In this document: positions 33,949 through 40,429 of the stretch, one piece after another
How positions within the stretch are numbered: position 1 is the stretch's first letter
Layout of the letters: every line of letters starts with the position of its first letter
Assembly: GCA_049517415.1 (NCBI GenBank)
Contig: JBEKSC010000003.1
Coordinates: 32,001-96,000 of the forward strand
DNA length: 64,000 nucleotides
Reading direction: 5' to 3'
DNA from: Candidatus Bathyarchaeia archaeon
Lineage (GTDB): Archaea; Thermoproteota; Bathyarchaeia; 40CM-2-53-6
The notes under the pieces: generated by a model
What the model was told of the DNA's origin: nothing
Databases searched by the model: none
Seen by the model: the letters and a program-made list of their open reading frames with translations, nothing else
Program-made: the position numbers and the translations under genes

Positions 33949-34863
33949 ATGGTCTGCATGGAGTTGGGTGGCGCAAGGTTGGATCAAGCGGCGTTTGCAG
34001 AGATCGCTTTCGAAAGCGCGAAAGACGAGTATACCGATTTCGCTGTTTACAAGAGGCTATCGGAATTTAAGTTCAAGACCCGTGAATTTAGCAGAACACT
34101 TCGCCGACTTGCCGGTATGGAATACCGTCACTACATTCTCTGGAAGAAGTATTGTCCGGGAAGAAAGCCCACAATTAACAAGCTCACTGTTTACATGATC
34201 GTTCTCCTTAGATTCATCTTGGGTGTAACCTTCGCAGTAAGGTACCTCGAACGGAATGAGAAGAATACTATCAAGAAGTACCGTGATCTAGCGTACATGA
34301 TTCCGTCGAAGGATAAGAAGCAATACAACGAAATGATCGCGGACGAAGAAGAACATGAGATGAAGCTTTCAGATTTCAATGAACCCCAGATCAAATACAT
34401 CTCCTTCATAGTGCTAGGCCTGGCGGACGCGCTAGTTGAAATCGCGGGCATCCACGCTGGCTCACTGGGTATTTACAACTCAACAGAACTGGCGGGGTTG
34501 GCCGGGATAATTGCTGGTGCAGCAGCGTCAGTAGCCATGGCATCGGCCGCGTACGCACAGGCAAAGACTGGTTTCAAGGGATCCGCGGCGCTTTCAGCCG
34601 TCTACACTGGAGTGTCTTACTTCGTTACGGCGGTGATCTTGGCGACACCGTACTTCCTAACGAAGGTTATGTTTGACGCGTTAGGTGCCTCGCTGTTCTT
34701 TGCTGTGCTGCTGATAGCTTTCATAAGCTTCTACGGCGCCGTCATTTCCGGAGCTGCATTCAAGAAGGACTTCATAGAGATTACATGCATAATGTTTGGT
34801 GCGACGATTGCCCTATACTTGCTTGGGACAGCAATCAAGTACTTGACCAAGATAACCATCTAG
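33949..34863 (+). CDS. Rubrerythrin-like plus VIT1/CCC1 membrane protein (iron export type)
   Basis: ExxH ferritin-like motifs (EYRH, EEEH) then LGLADALVEI...ASVAMASAAY and TM helices. Confidence 0.85.
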   Translation: MVCMELGGARLDQAAFAEIAFESAKDEYTDFAVYKRLSEFKFKTREFSRTLRRLAGMEYRHYILWKKYCPGRKPTINKLTVYMIVLLRFILGVTFAVRYLERNEKNTIKKYRDLAYMIPSKDKKQYNEMIADEEEHEMKLSDFNEPQIKYISFIVLGLADALVEIAGIHAGSLGIYNSTELAGLAGIIAGAAASVAMASAAYAQAKTGFKGSAALSAVYTGVSYFVTAVILATPYFLTKVMFDALGASLFFAVLLIAFISFYGAVISGAAFKKDFIEITCIMFGATIALYLLGTAIKYLTKITI

Positions 34864-34899
34864 AGATTTATCTTCGTCTGGACCACTAAAAGTGACCCA

Positions 34900-34924
34900 C
34901 CCCCCTAGGGGGCGCCTCCAAGCG
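34900..34924 (+). repeat. Target motif copy 1, left part (CCCCCTAGGGGG palindrome plus TSD TCCAAGCG at 34917-34924)
   Basis: Continues at 39862 after the insertion; 27/32 identical to copy 2 at 39919-39950. Confidence 0.75.
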
Positions 34925-35074
34925 GGTTCTGGTAACTTTGGAGGGTGGTTCTGAGGGCTGGTAACTTCAGGGGGGCACTCAGTTTTTCGGGTAATGTCAC
35001 GTCTACGTTTGGTAGGCCACCTAATTCTTGTTGTAACATTTCGTTTGGTGCTGGTGTTAGTGTGGTTCCTATCG

Positions 35075-35437
35075 TTAGATGTTCCACGTAGAATCACGCT
35101 TTCCTGCGCCACAGGCGGGACACGCATAGTATGTATTGAGTAGACCACGCTCCGTACTAGTTTGAACCTTAACCATCTTTTCATGGCACCTCCAACAACT
35201 CCTACCTAGCGCTGCGAACGGGCCCACTGCTACTATAATCAATAGTCCTCCAACAAGGCCGCCAAAAAATAGGTAAGCTGAAGGGAGACCTACGTACAAA
35301 CCAGTAGAGGAATCGTAGTACTGAAGAGGTACAAAAATTGCTGTTAAAACCCCTAGCAGCAACATCCCGAATCCTATCACGAGAAATGTGACATCATTAA
35401 AACCCCATCTCGACCTCTTCTTGAGTTTTGACTGCAA
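35075..35437 (-). CDS. Cargo: 2-TM membrane protein with C-terminal zinc ribbon
   Basis: Two hydrophobic helices, then CWRC...CPAC. Confidence 0.65.
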   Translation of the reverse strand: MQSKLKKRSRWGFNDVTFLVIGFGMLLLGVLTAIFVPLQYYDSSTGLYVGLPSAYLFFGGLVGGLLIIVAVGPFAALGRSCWRCHEKMVKVQTSTERGLLNTYYACPACGAGKRDSTWNI

Positions 35438-35536
35438 CGGAGGTGTAGCTCAACACGAGCATTATGGCAGTTGACTATTTACGAGTTAGCAAACAATAAT
35501 ACAAAACGCAAGAATAGAAGATAGAAAGAGTAAGAC

Positions 35537-36103
35537 TTGAAGCCCAAAACGAAATCAAATTGGAAGAAGATTCTGATAACCGCAGTGTTTGTCACACTAG
35601 GTTTGGTAGCAGCCATTGGGTACGAATCATACGCCGAACACCAACAATCACTGTATCCTACGAGTTCAAGCACCGCCGCTCTTCAACCGTCAAATTTTAC
35701 CATGAGCAGCAGCCAAGGTTGCCTAATGAATGAGACAGGGGGAACCTACGACTACTTTGCAATCACCATACGAAATAGCTACAGCGAAAATGTTCGGTAC
35801 CTTAACGCTTCAATCGTCGTCAGTTACATCGACCTGATAAACGATCAAAAGGCTTCCCACTTGTATCCACCACTCAGCAAGCCAATAACGAAGGTCGTTG
35901 AAGGACCTAACGAAACCGTCACTTGGGCATTCCCCATAAACTTCCCAATGTGGGGAACCTATTGGGAACCGCAGTACGCGGGTACGCGGATATTTGGTGC
36001 TAGTTTTACGTTAATTATCTTCTATCAACAAAACGACACGCCGCCCCAAGAGGTCTCCTTTCCTAGAACCTTTTGGGCTATCGACACGCATCCTAATTGT
36101 TGA
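35537..36103 (+). CDS. Cargo: membrane-anchored or secreted hypothetical protein
   Basis: Basic N-terminus, TM helix, Ser/Thr/Asn-rich extracellular-type domain, 188 aa. Confidence 0.7.
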   Translation: MKPKTKSNWKKILITAVFVTLGLVAAIGYESYAEHQQSLYPTSSSTAALQPSNFTMSSSQGCLMNETGGTYDYFAITIRNSYSENVRYLNASIVVSYIDLINDQKASHLYPPLSKPITKVVEGPNETVTWAFPINFPMWGTYWEPQYAGTRIFGASFTLIIFYQQNDTPPQEVSFPRTFWAIDTHPNC

Positions 36104-36112
36104 TTCCCGCAC

Positions 36113-36346
36113 TCACTCTAACCATAGTGAAGAGACACCAATCGCACCGAACGCGAGGATAACAACAATTCCCAGTGTACTTACCGCTTCAACTTGAAAA
36201 GATGAAAGTAACGGGCCAAATCCCTCACGCAACAAAGTCGCAACCATTGCATCCAGACTTACACCCAGAAGCGAATAGGGCCATAGTGACCCAAACCAGA
36301 GAGGCAAACTGAAGGTAAGCTCAATGCGAGCATTTTTCCCACCCAC
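36113..36346 (-). CDS. Cargo: small hydrophobic hypothetical protein
   Basis: 77-aa ORF with hydrophobic segments filling the space; start uncertain. Confidence 0.35.
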   Translation of the reverse strand: MGGKNARIELTFSLPLWFGSLWPYSLLGVSLDAMVATLLREGFGPLLSSFQVEAVSTLGIVVILAFGAIGVSSLWLE

Positions 36347-36455
36347 GTAGACTCGACGCAGACCCTATGCCCACCAAACGGTTTGTTGCAACACCCAAAA
36401 AATGCGTCACCAAACGCAGACATTACGTTACTGGCTTTCGGGACTTGACGCCAAC

Positions 36456-37058
36456 TCAACTCAACCAAACGCGCACGCACGAACAGAGAAATCGTGCAAG
36501 AACCGAAAACGCCCAAGATAGAAATGGGATGAATCCCTCAAGTGCTATGATTATCAAGGCTACTGCGGAAATGTACATGCTGTACTTAGCATAGATTGTA
36601 TTCCACGTAGTCACTTTGACACTCTGAATCGATTGGCCATCCGGTCCGATTTCATACGAAGTTGCGCCGTCAAAGCTAGTTAGACCCGTGTTCGTGGGGT
36701 CAATCCCTCTGCAAAAGAAAAGACCGAAACCGCTTGAGAGAGCCTCACTTTTCTGCTCTGTAAGGACACGGTCGAACTTGGCGTAGTCTTCTTGCTCCGG
36801 CTTCAGTTGTGGGATATCTACTCGCCAAGTGACAAATTGCCCAGATGTCCAGATGACTCGCATGAATGCACATCCGGAAGGGAAAGGCACTGATTGCAAG
36901 TTCTTGAACTTGAACCGCAAAGCGTAACCTTCCGTATCGACGAAATCTTCACGCTTTCCCCATTTATGCTTGCCCAACCTAAGGAAGGGGGCCTCAGACC
37001 TAATCTCAACTTTTAATCCTAGGCGGTGCTGGACTGTGGCAGAAGTTGTGGTGGCCAA
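36456..37058 (-). CDS. Cargo: hypothetical protein with C-terminal TM
   Basis: 200-aa ORF with a hydrophobic C-terminal helix. Confidence 0.65.
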   Translation of the reverse strand: MATTTSATVQHRLGLKVEIRSEAPFLRLGKHKWGKREDFVDTEGYALRFKFKNLQSVPFPSGCAFMRVIWTSGQFVTWRVDIPQLKPEQEDYAKFDRVLTEQKSEALSSGFGLFFCRGIDPTNTGLTSFDGATSYEIGPDGQSIQSVKVTTWNTIYAKYSMYISAVALIIIALEGFIPFLSWAFSVLARFLCSCVRVWLS

Positions 37059-37221
37059 GGGAAGAAATCAAGAATTCTTTTGTTGTGCCTCCTTTATTAC
37101 GGCTTCCCAATGTTGTCTTTAGGCTAAGACTTCTTTTTTCTTCTTCTTAGCTTGATTCCGGTTCTGCTAACTTCCGTAGGTGACGATTATGGATTCCCTT
37201 AGTGCTAACTTGCGGGGGAAT

Positions 37222-37506
37222 TCAATGCCAACCAATAGCCAAGAGATACTCAATAATCGCTCCAAGAGAGGCTACCGCGAAACCTATGATTTCCAAGCGG
37301 AAATGCCAATTGACAGTCTGGTAAAGATAACCCACATCAGAACCCCATCCTTTCACGCCATGCCTATTCCGCTCTATGTTTTTGCGCAACAATTCAATAG
37401 CGTCATGATTCGATTTCTCAATGCCCAACTTAGTGATGTATGAGGCAACAGCTAGACATAGAAACAGAATTGCAATAAAGACGAACAGAACTGAAATCAT
37501 GACCAT
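37222..37506 (-). CDS. Cargo: small 2-TM membrane protein
   Basis: 94 aa with hydrophobic N- and C-terminal helices, directly downstream of the transposase. Confidence 0.55.
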   Translation of the reverse strand: MVMISVLFVFIAILFLCLAVASYITKLGIEKSNHDAIELLRKNIERNRHGVKGWGSDVGYLYQTVNWHFRLEIIGFAVASLGAIIEYLLAIGWH

Positions 37507-37532
37507 GGATAAGTTGAAACGAGGAAATAACG

Positions 37533-38672
37533 CTAACCTTTACGAGTTGATTTCTTGATTAGCGACTCCCACATGTTACCAGTAAGACCTAATTCGATTC
37601 CCGCCGCTTGCGCTGGTGTCTTGCCCCCTAGTGCTGTGTGTGGGCGTAGGTAGTCGTAGTAGATACGTTGTCCCTCAATGAATGCGGAATCTGGTTTCTT
37701 GATTGCTCGCATCGTTTTCGATCTCTCCTTGAATGTGCCATGATAGCGTTCCATGCGATTATTGTTCACACGACCCTGAATGCCAATTCCTGAAACATGC
37801 ACCGCATTCGGAAACTCTCTTTGTGCTGCTGGGACATACGACGACAAGCCATCGGTGAGTAGAACCCTTGCATCGGTCTTAGCTACGGCTTTTGCTTCTC
37901 GGAATGCTTCTCTCGCGTCGGCTACGGTTCTGCCTTGCGAAACATGGTTTGCGAGTAGAAATCTTGTGTCGCTATCCATTAGATGCCATAGCCATACCCA
38001 TTGACCCCGAATGTTCACTTTCGTTTCGTCAGCGTGAAAAACCCGTGAAAGTTCAGGATGTAGAGCATCGACATAATCACGCATTAAAGCCACATATTTC
38101 TTAATCCACTTGATGACCGCAACATGGCTTACGTTCACTCCCTCAAACTGTTTCAAGTGGTCAACTATCTTTCGGAGGCTAACGCCTTTGAAATAAAGGT
38201 CTAGCGCGACCGTAATCGCGTGTGGGTTCGTGTGCATCTTCTCGAAACCGTTGTTCTTCGCATCCCACTTGTGCTTGCAGTCGATGCACTTGTACCGCTG
38301 TGTCCGGCTGTTGGCATGATAACGCCAGCCCCACTTTTGGATATGAGTTGAATTGCATCTAGCACATTTCTCTATTGAGCTATCGGATATTTCTGGGGCT
38401 AAGTCTAGGTTCTGAGCTGTTACATGCTCTCGGAAATTCAGAGAGAAGAAAGTCGCGTAAATGTGCTTGCAGGCTACTTGTCTATTCAGGAAGTCTGGGC
38501 ACTCGCAAGCCCAATCTTCTCCCATTCTAGTCACAAGATAATGACCGTTCCCTGATTGTGACTTCACGCGGTAAGCGTTCTCGTTTAGGCGTTTGATTTC
38601 AGTTCCATTAGATAGCATTTCCCACGCACGAATCTGTCGTGCTTCAAGGGTTACTGCCAATTTCTTCACCAA
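37533..38672 (-). CDS. DDE transposase (IS6/IS240-like) with N-terminal SWIM finger and zinc ribbon
   Basis: CECPDF..CKH (SWIM), CARC...CIDC, SLRKIVDHL HTH, HADETK / TDGLSSY / NNRMERYH (D,D,E), RPHTALGGKTPA tail. Confidence 0.92.
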   Translation of the reverse strand: MVKKLAVTLEARQIRAWEMLSNGTEIKRLNENAYRVKSQSGNGHYLVTRMGEDWACECPDFLNRQVACKHIYATFFSLNFREHVTAQNLDLAPEISDSSIEKCARCNSTHIQKWGWRYHANSRTQRYKCIDCKHKWDAKNNGFEKMHTNPHAITVALDLYFKGVSLRKIVDHLKQFEGVNVSHVAVIKWIKKYVALMRDYVDALHPELSRVFHADETKVNIRGQWVWLWHLMDSDTRFLLANHVSQGRTVADAREAFREAKAVAKTDARVLLTDGLSSYVPAAQREFPNAVHVSGIGIQGRVNNNRMERYHGTFKERSKTMRAIKKPDSAFIEGQRIYYDYLRPHTALGGKTPAQAAGIELGLTGNMWESLIKKSTRKG

Positions 38673-38676
38673 TTCC

Positions 38677-38733
38677 TTGTGTGGTGATATTACTGCACAA
38701 GAGTAATATAATGCTTGCGGTGATATAACTGCA
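38677..38733. promoter_or_regulatory. Divergent promoter with two imperfect palindromic operator-like sites flanking a TATA-like box
   Basis: TGTGGTGATATTACTGCA (38680-38697) and TGCGGTGATATAACTGCA (38716-38733), 16/18 identical, either side of TAATATAA (38704-38711). Confidence 0.7.
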
Positions 38734-38743
38734 CGGTGAAAGC

Positions 38744-38935
38744 TTGGTACGCGCTCGAATTCTAGGCGACTGGGAGAGGAAGATAGTTGAAGCCTATGTT
38801 AAGGGACAACGACTGAAGGGGTACACCGCCTTACTTTCAGACATACGAAAGATGGGATTGAAAACAATCATTGAAGGTTGCGAAAGCGACCTCGCCTTGC
38901 TCAAGAAACTGTTTGCCTTGGAGACTCAACGCTAA
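38744..38935 (+). CDS. 63-aa helical protein divergent from the transposase (candidate regulator)
   Basis: TTG start preceded by GGTGA; basic helical protein; head-to-head with the transposase. Confidence 0.65.
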   Translation: MVRARILGDWERKIVEAYVKGQRLKGYTALLSDIRKMGLKTIIEGCESDLALLKKLFALETQR

Positions 38936-39730
38936 ACAACCATCTTGATAATTTCTTAAAGCCACCTCTCTTAAGGCTTCGCCACAGACGAATCGTTGGG
39001 CGGTCGTAATTTACGTATATTCTGTTCCAGTCTTCTGCCTCAACATAGACACCTTCGTTTGCCGCGTATCTCAATCCTTCGCCCGCTAGAGCGAAATGAA
39101 GCCTATACGTGCTGGCTAATGGGAGTACGACTGGCTTTTCCGTAGCGAGAAAGAGGTTGTTGTAGCCCTTTATAGTATAGAAGCCGGTTGCATAGTGGGC
39201 CCATCCAGCCTTCAGATTTTGCGCATATTTCTTGCACACTACGGAATGAACCGCTCTGGGAATATATTGTTCCAATGCCTCTCCCGTTTGAACTGCAACC
39301 TCTTCGGATTTAGGTTCAAAGAGTACATCCCAAGTGACCGTCTCTGAGACTGGATATCGAATCGAGCGCGGAATATTATGACCACTTACTGCTACAAGTA
39401 GTTCAGCATCTTTGATGTGGCTTTGTTGAACATTGACAGAAAGCATGAATTGCCGAATGATGACTTTAGTCGCACCAAGATTGATTTCAATATCGGTGGT
39501 TAAGGTTTCCTTAGTAAGCTCATCGAGCCAAATGTCAGCACTCGGATGTTCCATAAAAAAACGTATGCTTCTGCCAAGATGAGACCCCCGAACCCTAGTA
39601 CCTCGCTCACAATCAGCCAAAGAGACAGTTTTTCGACTGTTGAGGTTAGAAATTGCTGAACATAGAGTGTCACGCCAATAGCGATTACGAACACTAAAGC
39701 TCCAAGGAATACCAGAAGAGCTGGGCGCAT
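38901..39730 (-). CDS. Cargo: 2-TM N-terminus (39500-39730) and soluble domain (from about 39554 to 38901) in different frames, joined at a T7 run
   Basis: AEAYVF then T TTT TTA; the -1 frame continues MEHPSADIWLDEL... Confidence 0.5.
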
Positions 39731-39918
39731 GAAATGCTGTCCGTCTGTATTGGTATTTAAAACGCCCTAGAAGACTCTCAAGAATTGAGCCATATGAAAA
39801 ACCCCCTAGCCAGTTACCAAACCGAAAAGCCCCCCACAAAAGTTACCAGAACCTCCAAGCGTACGCGCGACTTGGAAAGCGCAAAATCAGCCGCGTTTGA
39901 CTCAGAAAACTGAGTCAC

Positions 39919-39950
39919 CCCCCCTGGGGGGTCCATCCAAGCGTGCGCGC
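39919..39950 (+). repeat. Target motif copy 2 (unoccupied)
   Basis: CCCCCCTGGGGGGTCCATCCAAGCGTGCGCGC, preceded by the palindrome GACTCAG-AAAA-CTGAGTC. Confidence 0.75.
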
Positions 39951-40081
39951 AAGAAAACTAGGGTGTGGCGCACTCTAACCATGGGTGTTGAAGGAAGCGG
40001 CGCTTAGTTGTTGTCCGCACCACGATATCCGCAGACGGATAAATTAGTTAAGTTTAGGAAATGTTTGTAGGTGCGAAAACT

Positions 40082-40429
40082 ATGCCAAGTATAGAGCCTT
40101 CGATTGAATACGCTGATTTTTCTAGAGTTGACATGAGGGTCGGTCGAATAGTCAGGGTTGAGGATTTTCCCACGGCCAAGAACCCATCGTATCGGATATG
40201 GGTCGACTTCGGAGAACTCGGCGTTAAGCAAACTTCCGCACAGTTAACGAGGTACACAAAGGAACAGCTCTTGAATAGTCTAGTGATAGCCGTGGTCAAC
40301 TTTCATCCTAAGCAAATTGCGAACTTCCTCAGCGAGGTTCTGATCCTGGGAGTTGATGACGAGCCAAAATCCGGCGTTGTCGTACTTCATCCGGAGAGCG
40401 ACGTTCCTCTTGGACGACGGGTCTACTAG
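40082..40429 (+). CDS. csaA: tRNA-binding protein / chaperone CsaA
   Basis: DMRVGRI, VDFGELGVKQTSAQLT, VVNFHPKQIANFLSEVLILG. Confidence 0.88.
   Translation: MPSIEPSIEYADFSRVDMRVGRIVRVEDFPTAKNPSYRIWVDFGELGVKQTSAQLTRYTKEQLLNSLVIAVVNFHPKQIANFLSEVLILGVDDEPKSGVVVLHPESDVPLGRRVY

Follow-up and report, generated by a model that had tools for sequence, protein, structure and literature searches.

How DDE transposases select their targets has been worked out in few cases. Here we describe a 4929-bp cargo transposon at positions 34925-39853 of a 64,000-nucleotide stretch (hereafter, the window) of contig JBEKSC010000003.1 from a Candidatus Bathyarchaeia archaeon. It is IS6-like and has inverted ends and a perfect 8-bp target site duplication (TSD). 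The closest known elements are the long zinc-finger members of the IS6/IS26 insertion sequences (IS; clades VII/VIII or h/i), the archaeal members and the transporter IS (tIS) ISDsp3. Statements that carry a PMC number refer to passages of the respective papers. The end consensus of the IS6 family is GGTTCTG (PMC6807381). The window element is like this family in its IS6 profile and DDE triad, GGTTCTG ends with G7, 8-bp TSD, D-to-E spacing of 33 and N-terminal zinc finger, and its passengers are comparable to those of ISDsp3 (PMC6807381, PMC7986276). Unlike IS6, it spans 4.9 kb, carries a SWIM domain and several cargo open reading frames (ORFs) and has a second gene that is conserved; each of its ends holds two bipartite sites, and its target choice is clearly biased. 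The main text of the IS6 review contains neither "SWIM" nor "sequence specificity" (PMC7986276), and no target consensus for IS6 is described in the passages searched.

The transposase scored 134.7 bits with the NCBIfam profile transpos_IS6 (NF033587; cut-off, 125) and 59.9 with Pfam DDE_Tnp_IS240 (PF13610; cut-off, 27), and the SWIM domain was also over its cut-off. D215, D274 and E308 were invariant across 40 aligned rows. The structure model had a predicted local distance difference test score (pLDDT) of 77.7, and the fold search gave generic DDE matches only, the best being ISCth4 (E 6e-7). Harmer and Hall proposed that long and archaeal members should stand outside the IS6/IS26 family (PMC6807381, PMC7986276). 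Their narrow IS6/IS26 elements have 789-880 bp, a single gene, no extra N-terminal domains and a 14-bp terminal inverted repeat with G10, whereas the window element has 4929 bp, SWIM and a zinc ribbon, cargo, A at position 10 and two-site ends of about 50 bp. It is an IS6 member in the broad (ISfinder) sense only. Its closest named relatives are Bathyarchaeia records, and homologues occur in 19 of the 59 host-family genomes. The literature searched on IS6/SWIM in archaea, archaeal IS and TATA targeting, IS26 target preference and Bathyarchaeia IS gave no description of the clade reported below, although ISfinder and supplements could list similar elements.

Target sites of the G-ended elements

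The ends of the window element (GGTTCTGGTAACTT) are complementary at 18/20 positions, and both tips read GGTTCTGG. Each end carries two copies of a bipartite site, GGTAACT-n-G-run, in which the G-run forms the second half; this site is common to the whole clade of G-ended (G-type) elements. The two-site layout of the outer end recurs in 41 G-type ends (among the matches listed), and its two sites are likely bound by the transposase, as predicted from this layout. The original prediction, made from the letters of the window, was that the insertion is directed by sequence to a motif resembling the element's own ends. The half-site inside the ends was present as claimed (CCCCCTAG at 39802-39809), as was its mirror at 34968-34986.

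Relatives were collected by a metagenome scan for the two-site end, which gave at least 130 stretches; 125 loci yielded 122 distinct ends. Fourteen of the 122 were removed as coding or tandem look-alikes, and collapsing the two ends of an element, recurrent TSDs and flanks shorter than 30 nt brought the remaining 108 down to 95 sites. The classes were set by the inside sequence alone, with 34 G-type sites and 61 sites of other types; the threshold put some G-like ends in the other class, an effect that disfavours a G target. Three loci identical to the window (L079, L099 and L113) were not counted as independent. At most sites, one flank only was visible.

TSDs starting with GGG or ending with CCC were found at 17/34 G-type sites (same-contig background, 3.0%) and at 5/61 sites of other types (Fisher p 7e-6). 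G5 or C5 within 25 nt was detected at 18/34 G-type sites (background, 1.9%) versus 4/61 (Fisher p 6e-7). When the window's own strain was left out, 17 of 33 G-type sites were positive in each of these tests. A TATA-like word, in contrast, was present at 1/34 G-type sites and at 26/61 sites of other types (background, 8.5%; Fisher p 1e-5). The match of the own half-site to the own flank gave z=+7.9 in the G-type and z=-2.1 in the other types. The held-out set consisted of nine ends from GTDB genomes, two of them from one locus (L214). L219 was excluded as it has no second site, and L217 (L172) and L220/L226 (L123) were excluded as they were already in the metagenome set. In the held-out ends, GGG/CCC TSDs were found in 4/9, G5/C5 in 4/9 and either feature in 5/9, with backgrounds of 2.6, 2.1 and 4.5%, respectively (p 2e-5 for either). 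Among non-G elements of the same host family, the G signal was found in 0/22 distinct TSDs. In addition, G-type elements adjoin the G-run inside other G-type ends at L097 and L123, and at L089 the element lies in an end tip, where its duplication consists of bases 2-9 of a degraded G-type end. These sequence comparisons indicate that the G-ended clade very probably targets G-tracts. The targeting is real, as the original prediction held, but it is clade-wide and broader than the repeat at the window target.

The position of the G-run was analyzed in a looser G set of 45 sites. A G-run of at least 4 was present on the visible side in 17 of them, and this run ends at TSD base 3 in 9/17. The TSD ends with CCC in 9 of the 28 remaining sites. 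The window's register, in which the G-run lies 4 nt before the TSD, was found in 2 of the 17 visible runs. Since the G-run mostly overlaps the TSD (bases 1-3), the predicted fixed spacing of 4 bp between C5-TA-G5 and the TSD is wrong, and the window copy, which is 7 nt off the usual register, is atypical. In the symmetrised TSD matrix, G accounts for 50/50/42% at positions 1-3, and C prevails at 6-8. Among the eight other G-type elements with both ends located, six have the GGG register with a one-sided tract. The right end of L217 lies one base beyond the value used in the register count.

The G-type transposases (window, L133, L001, L121 and L097) formed one clade in a quick tree of 54 rows, with a Shimodaira-Hasegawa-like approximate likelihood ratio test (SH-aLRT) value of 100. 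Their D274-E308 segment has 35 residues in 10/10 G-clade rows, versus 40-41 residues in 55/63 others. A special role of SWIM, which had been proposed, was not borne out: the domain is found in both the G-tract and the TATA clades, and its divergence between clades is 0.49 versus 0.51 among the others. In the sister clades, a strict TATA-like word was detected in 22/61 non-G flanks, and 18 of these 22 words lie 4-7 nt from the TSD. TBP/TFB likely recruits the transposase in these clades. The closest model for the sister clades, though not for the window element, is the p-MULT elements (TnGBS, ISLre2 and the ISKra4 lineage), which insert at a fixed distance upstream of promoters and for which a transposase signature was derived from targeting versus non-targeting lineages; they differ from the sister clades in being Mutator-type and in using bacterial sigma-A promoters (PMC3942029). 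Near relatives with the same domains have sharply differing targets (TATA-proximal versus G-tract), and the sequences suggest that one transposon family likely switched its mode of target choice. The contrast in targets runs parallel to the transposase phylogeny, to the end motif and to a single small indel, which makes its determinant testable by domain and loop swaps.

The REP-like repeat at the window target

The original prediction placed the element in one of a pair of tandem motifs. The tandem arrangement was confirmed: the 32-mer of the reconstructed empty site is 27/32 identical to 39919-39950, at a distance of 82 bp start to start. The pair is not unique, however. The 32-mer is the core of a dispersed repeat of about 75 bp, with 15 genome copies at E<1e-3 in a profile search, one of which is split by the element and resumes beyond it at 39862-39868. 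The repeat totals 1417 bp (0.054% of the genome), and 12/15 copies lie outside ORFs of at least 130 aa. It is dispersed, mostly intergenic, palindromic with predicted hairpins and arranged in tandem units, which are the traits of repetitive extragenic palindromes (REP) and bacterial interspersed mosaic elements. The strict core was found in 3/59 genomes of the family, all of one genus, and a looser core in 3/5 genomes tested. The repeat holds 10/29 inverted C-tract/G-tract pairs and 17/152 GGGGGGT words of the genome. REP repeats are also associated with a RAYT/Y1 transposase; its profile PF01797 had no match in the host genome, a search with one profile of a 59-contig assembly that does not show absence.

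Tandem degenerate units about 80-90 bp apart were also observed elsewhere in the host genome (G000; C10:44000-44170, C15:51700-52060, C17:36950-37170 and C24:35060-35230). Units of the repeat are present in the genomes G037, G045 and G046 as well.

Two further insertions were found in this repeat family. L217 (genome G045), a G-type element of 1.66 kb whose TSD is perfect, lies on the opposite side of the central TA, and L215, in genome G037, is a G-type element within a degenerate unit. Together with the window, the repeat family carries insertions in three genomes, at differing positions, in agreement with the predicted landing site in a repeated intergenic element. The repeat model at E<0.01 matches only 1/33 other metagenome G sites (among the matches listed); thus, the signal is the G-tract and not the 32-mer. 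The REP-like repeat supplies many paired tracts in the genus and for this reason is hit; it bears the targeting signal without being that signal. Chance hits on an abundant dispersed repeat had been named as the outcome that would speak against targeting. The repeat is indeed dispersed, but it makes up a very small part of the genome and is nevertheless hit in three genomes.

REP-targeting IS, such as IS1397, ISKpn1, IS621 and ISRm22 (families IS3, IS110, IS4, IS256 and IS5), likewise insert in a dispersed intergenic palindromic repeat (PMC1525189). Unlike these, the window element is IS6-like and archaeal; the passages of PMC1525189 list these five other families and no archaea. Moreover, in a REP-targeting IS most copies would lie in the repeat at one position, whereas the repeat described here is one carrier of the G-tract signal and is hit at differing positions. 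An archaeal REP-like repeat is added to the landing sites of transposons.

Explanations of the target choice

The transposase itself may read G-tracts, using the same G-run specificity that is predicted for the latter half of each end site; we regard the chances of this as about even. The usual target is one-sided: a tract of G or C is followed, after a brief T/A/G link, by a G-run whose last three G are TSD bases 1-3. Direct reading by the protein would recognize the tract, and the D-to-E loop, shorter by 5-6 residues, would be tied to the changed target. We put forward only tentatively, as possible rather than probable, a wider scenario in which target choice flipped from host-guided, at the upstream edge of a TATA-bound initiation complex, to self-guided. 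One clade would have lost a loop of 5-6 residues in the catalytic domain and reused the G-run half of its end code for target capture; ends and targets would co-evolve, and the genus-specific REP-like repeat would serve as a pseudo-end landing pad. If this scenario is true, swaps between the two clades would offer a natural means of mapping, and of reprogramming, target selection by DDE transposases.

Insertion directed by ends is known in members of the IS3 and IS30 families (PMC7986276), and the H-HTH of IS30 is required for target binding (PMC1525189). In end-directed insertion by IS911 and IS30 and in targeted conservative cointegration by IS26, the own end or a look-alike is the target, as here (PMC7986276). 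Unlike in those systems, an ordinary 8-bp TSD accompanies the product here, the match extends to no more than the G-run half of the site, and insertion usually falls in register with the G-run rather than with the tip.

Several observations weigh against reading by the transposase. The GGG/CCC, G5/C5 and TATA-like criteria were picked after seeing the data, so that only the nine held-out ends are a fair test. Neither G feature was present on the visible side at 11/34 G-type sites. L133, whose transposase is 79% identical to that of the window, lies in G-poor coding-like sequence, and L001/L225 has neither a G-tract nor a TSD. The registers spread from +5 to -7. In the usual register the G-run is at the cut, whereas in the ends it lies about 20 nt away; a simple model of end mimicry would not predict this placement. 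The sister clades do not target their own half-sites, and self-like targeting is therefore no family rule. A G-run carries little information, so that resemblance to the ends speaks only weakly for a binding site common to both. Counted from the junction on the minus strand of the window target, TA occupies positions 18-19 and the G-run positions 20-25, where the end consensus has its G-run half-site. Judging from this spacing and from one similar case, L089, the repeat may have served as a pseudo-end in the window insertion. Across sites, however, no peak was seen at the pseudo-end register, with 1/34 at the exact offset; thus, pseudo-end use stays an anecdote.

Alternatively, the catalytic domain might prefer a G/C-edged bendable target (a palindromic GGGWWCCC-like TSD in G-tracts), by shape or by contact at the cut, and the end likeness would be incidental. 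The G and C edges of the TSD matrix, the G-run at the cut and the location of the clade-specific change in the catalytic domain are all in line with such a preference. It is nonetheless fairly unlikely, as tracts beyond the TSD occur on one side and extend to about 12 nt, GGG is missing from the TSD at off-register sites such as those of the window and L218, and some insertions lie beside G-runs inside other ends. IS231A, a DDE element of the IS4 family, reportedly has a target consensus of the GGG-N5-CCC type and would be like the window clade in its G/C edges. It differs in family and TSD length, and is not known to have a target match to its own ends or TATA-biased sister clades.

A host protein bound to paired G/C tracts such as the REP-like palindrome, or non-B DNA there, might recruit the transposase. 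The upstream tract lies at about the place of the sisters' TATA-like box (gap of 4-7 nt in 18/22 boxes among 61 sites), and the repeat was hit in three genomes and holds 10/29 inverted paired tracts in 0.054% of the genome. On the other hand, only one of the 33 other metagenome G sites fits the repeat model at the same threshold, the targets include direct as well as inverted tracts with varied spacing, and the G-runs in the ends are left unexplained. We judge recruitment of this kind to be distinctly unlikely.

Random insertion with survival only in neutral G-rich intergenic repeats, for which the position of 12/15 repeat copies outside long ORFs and of L133 in G-poor sequence could speak, is very improbable in view of the base-precise register (9/17 at +3) and the 0/22 among non-G elements of the same host family.

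An element-encoded guide (RNA or DNA) near 34940-34990 that pairs with the target, like the bridge RNAs of IS110, had also been proposed. The extended mirror that includes ACTCAGTTTT covers 24 nt (34968-34991) and agrees with one repeat subtype at 20/24 positions. This match is borderline: local scores of 29-33 are within the range of the shuffle maxima of 32-37 (300 shuffles), the subtype is that of copy 2 and not of the occupied copy, and the end of another clade member matches the repeat equally well (38 vs 38). Inside sequence scored 25.8 against the own flank and 25.5 against other flanks (n=21), and the suggested covariation of end-internal sequence with the target was not found within the G-type (own versus permuted end variant, p=0.30). 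With no own-flank excess in 21 other elements, and with a DDE enzyme in place of the DEDD enzyme and the internal guide matching each target that characterize RNA-guided IS110/IS1111 elements, the guide was rejected as most improbable.

Other features of the locus

Table 1. Features of the window element and its target. Positions are those of the window.
Feature	Position	Strand	Description	Basis
Whole cargo transposon	34925..39853	.		inverted ends and perfect 8-bp TSD
Left TSD copy	34917..34924	+	TCCAAGCG	sequence
Right TSD copy	39854..39861	+	TCCAAGCG	sequence
Outer end	34925..34975	+	tip GGTTCTG; bipartite sites GGTAACT at 34931-37 and 34960-66, G-run after each	
Other end	39802..39853	-	two-site layout as in outer end; CCCCCTAG is the G-run half of the second site	
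REP-like repeat copy 1 (target)	34876..34924	+	left part, with C6-TA-G5 at 34900-34912	nhmmer E 1e-6
REP-like repeat copy 2	39876..39951	+	unoccupied	nhmmer E 2e-18
Transposase	37533..38672	-	379 aa: SWIM (45-79), zinc ribbon (~102-135), helical helix-turn-helix region, RNase-H-type DDE (D215, D274, E308)	
Second gene of element	38744..38935	+	63-aa divergent ORF, conserved	
Two 19-bp direct repeats	38680..38734	.	flank an AT-rich box, between transposase and small ORF	
Nested non-autonomous element	34990..36432	.	sister end type (GGTAAYG...GTTTGGT sites); degenerate TSD 6/8	inverted repeats
Inner G-type end	37160..37218	+	faces transposase; no matching TSD	
Cargo ORF, 120 aa	35075..35437	-	within nested element; hydrophobic stretch and Cys pair	
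Cargo ORF, 188 aa	35537..36103	+	within nested element; the C6 element of the host genome has a distant homologue	
Cargo ORF, 200 aa	36456..37058	-	partial homologue at G-type locus L171	
Cargo ORF, 94 aa	37222..37506	-		
Cargo ORF, ~217 aa	38901..39554	-	counted from its ATG; no homologue among collected loci	
Cargo ORF, 76 aa	39500..39730	-	hydrophobic	

The features of the locus are listed in Table 1. The 63-aa ORF has homologues, 60-75% identical, that adjoin transposases of both clades, and its model shows three helices (pLDDT 91). No Pfam family matched it, and the atlas and fold searches yielded nothing usable (best Z 4.0). It is likely a regulator. Its similarity between clades exceeds that of the transposases (35-50%), which suggests shuffling. 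The ORF was ruled out as a target selector, since its nearest homologues (70-75%) include elements outside the G clade. For the six cargo ORFs, no family was over the cut-off in Pfam, PADLOC or NCBIfam.

The end type of the nested element, which the original prediction had not mentioned, is also found on intact relatives. The inner G-type end is likely a relic of an earlier, shorter element, and the direct repeats with the AT-rich box are likely an operator and promoter, as judged from their arrangement. In the last transposase codons (37561-37582), GGTAAC precedes a G-rich stretch in the manner of an end site; this may be only the conserved GNxW coding motif.

The insertion is intergenic, between a VIT1/rubrerythrin-like protein (33949-34863; below cut-off) and a tRNA-binding-domain protein (40061-40429). 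IS6/IS26 members move by replicative cointegrate formation and by a targeted conservative pathway; the perfect TSDs on both sides of the window element fit a simple insertion or a resolved cointegrate. An Rfam search over 34500-40300 gave no match at E<=5. No second copy of the exact window element was found in its own genome, which has five other transposase loci (C3:151 kb, C6, C7, C14 and C23) and a fragment on C12, distant at 34-44%; where their ends were located, end types and targets differ from those of the window element. Neither an empty allele nor further insertion sites were seen in the contigs of 4 of the 24 listed runs. A joint of 34912 to 39895 was rejected as an empty allele, as its two sides are separated by unknown letters and another repeat copy accounts for it.

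Many sister-type elements are stacked at one site. They stand head to tail with one 8-bp duplication between them, at the same site in several genomes (L040, L042, L046, L050, L059 and host G000 C23:35150-42130). The TSD of the stacks is TTACGTAA or a near variant. Next to it are a TATA-like box and a palindrome, GTTAC-n-GTAAC, which is similar to the core of the elements' own ends. A GTTAC/TTACC...GGTAA palindrome was also observed near a TATA-like box at differing targets (L038, L043, L048, L054 and host G000 C7:61087-61150). This palindrome is possibly the operator of one host regulator with favoured promoters.

A TATA-like core lies inside a C-tract/G-tract palindrome at the targets of L090 (5970-6000) and L121 (75-112), and the L090 transposase is of an intermediate loop length type with non-G ends. 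Among G-clade elements, the orientation of the transposase relative to the two end variants (first site of the GGGTGG or TAGGGGG type) differs between L111 and L001 on the one side and the window, L103 and L133 on the other. Finally, the host genome carries a 354-bp non-autonomous element with a 9-bp duplication (G000 C44:3426-3779); the final 8 bases of this duplication are found again at positions 10-17 of the element's left end.

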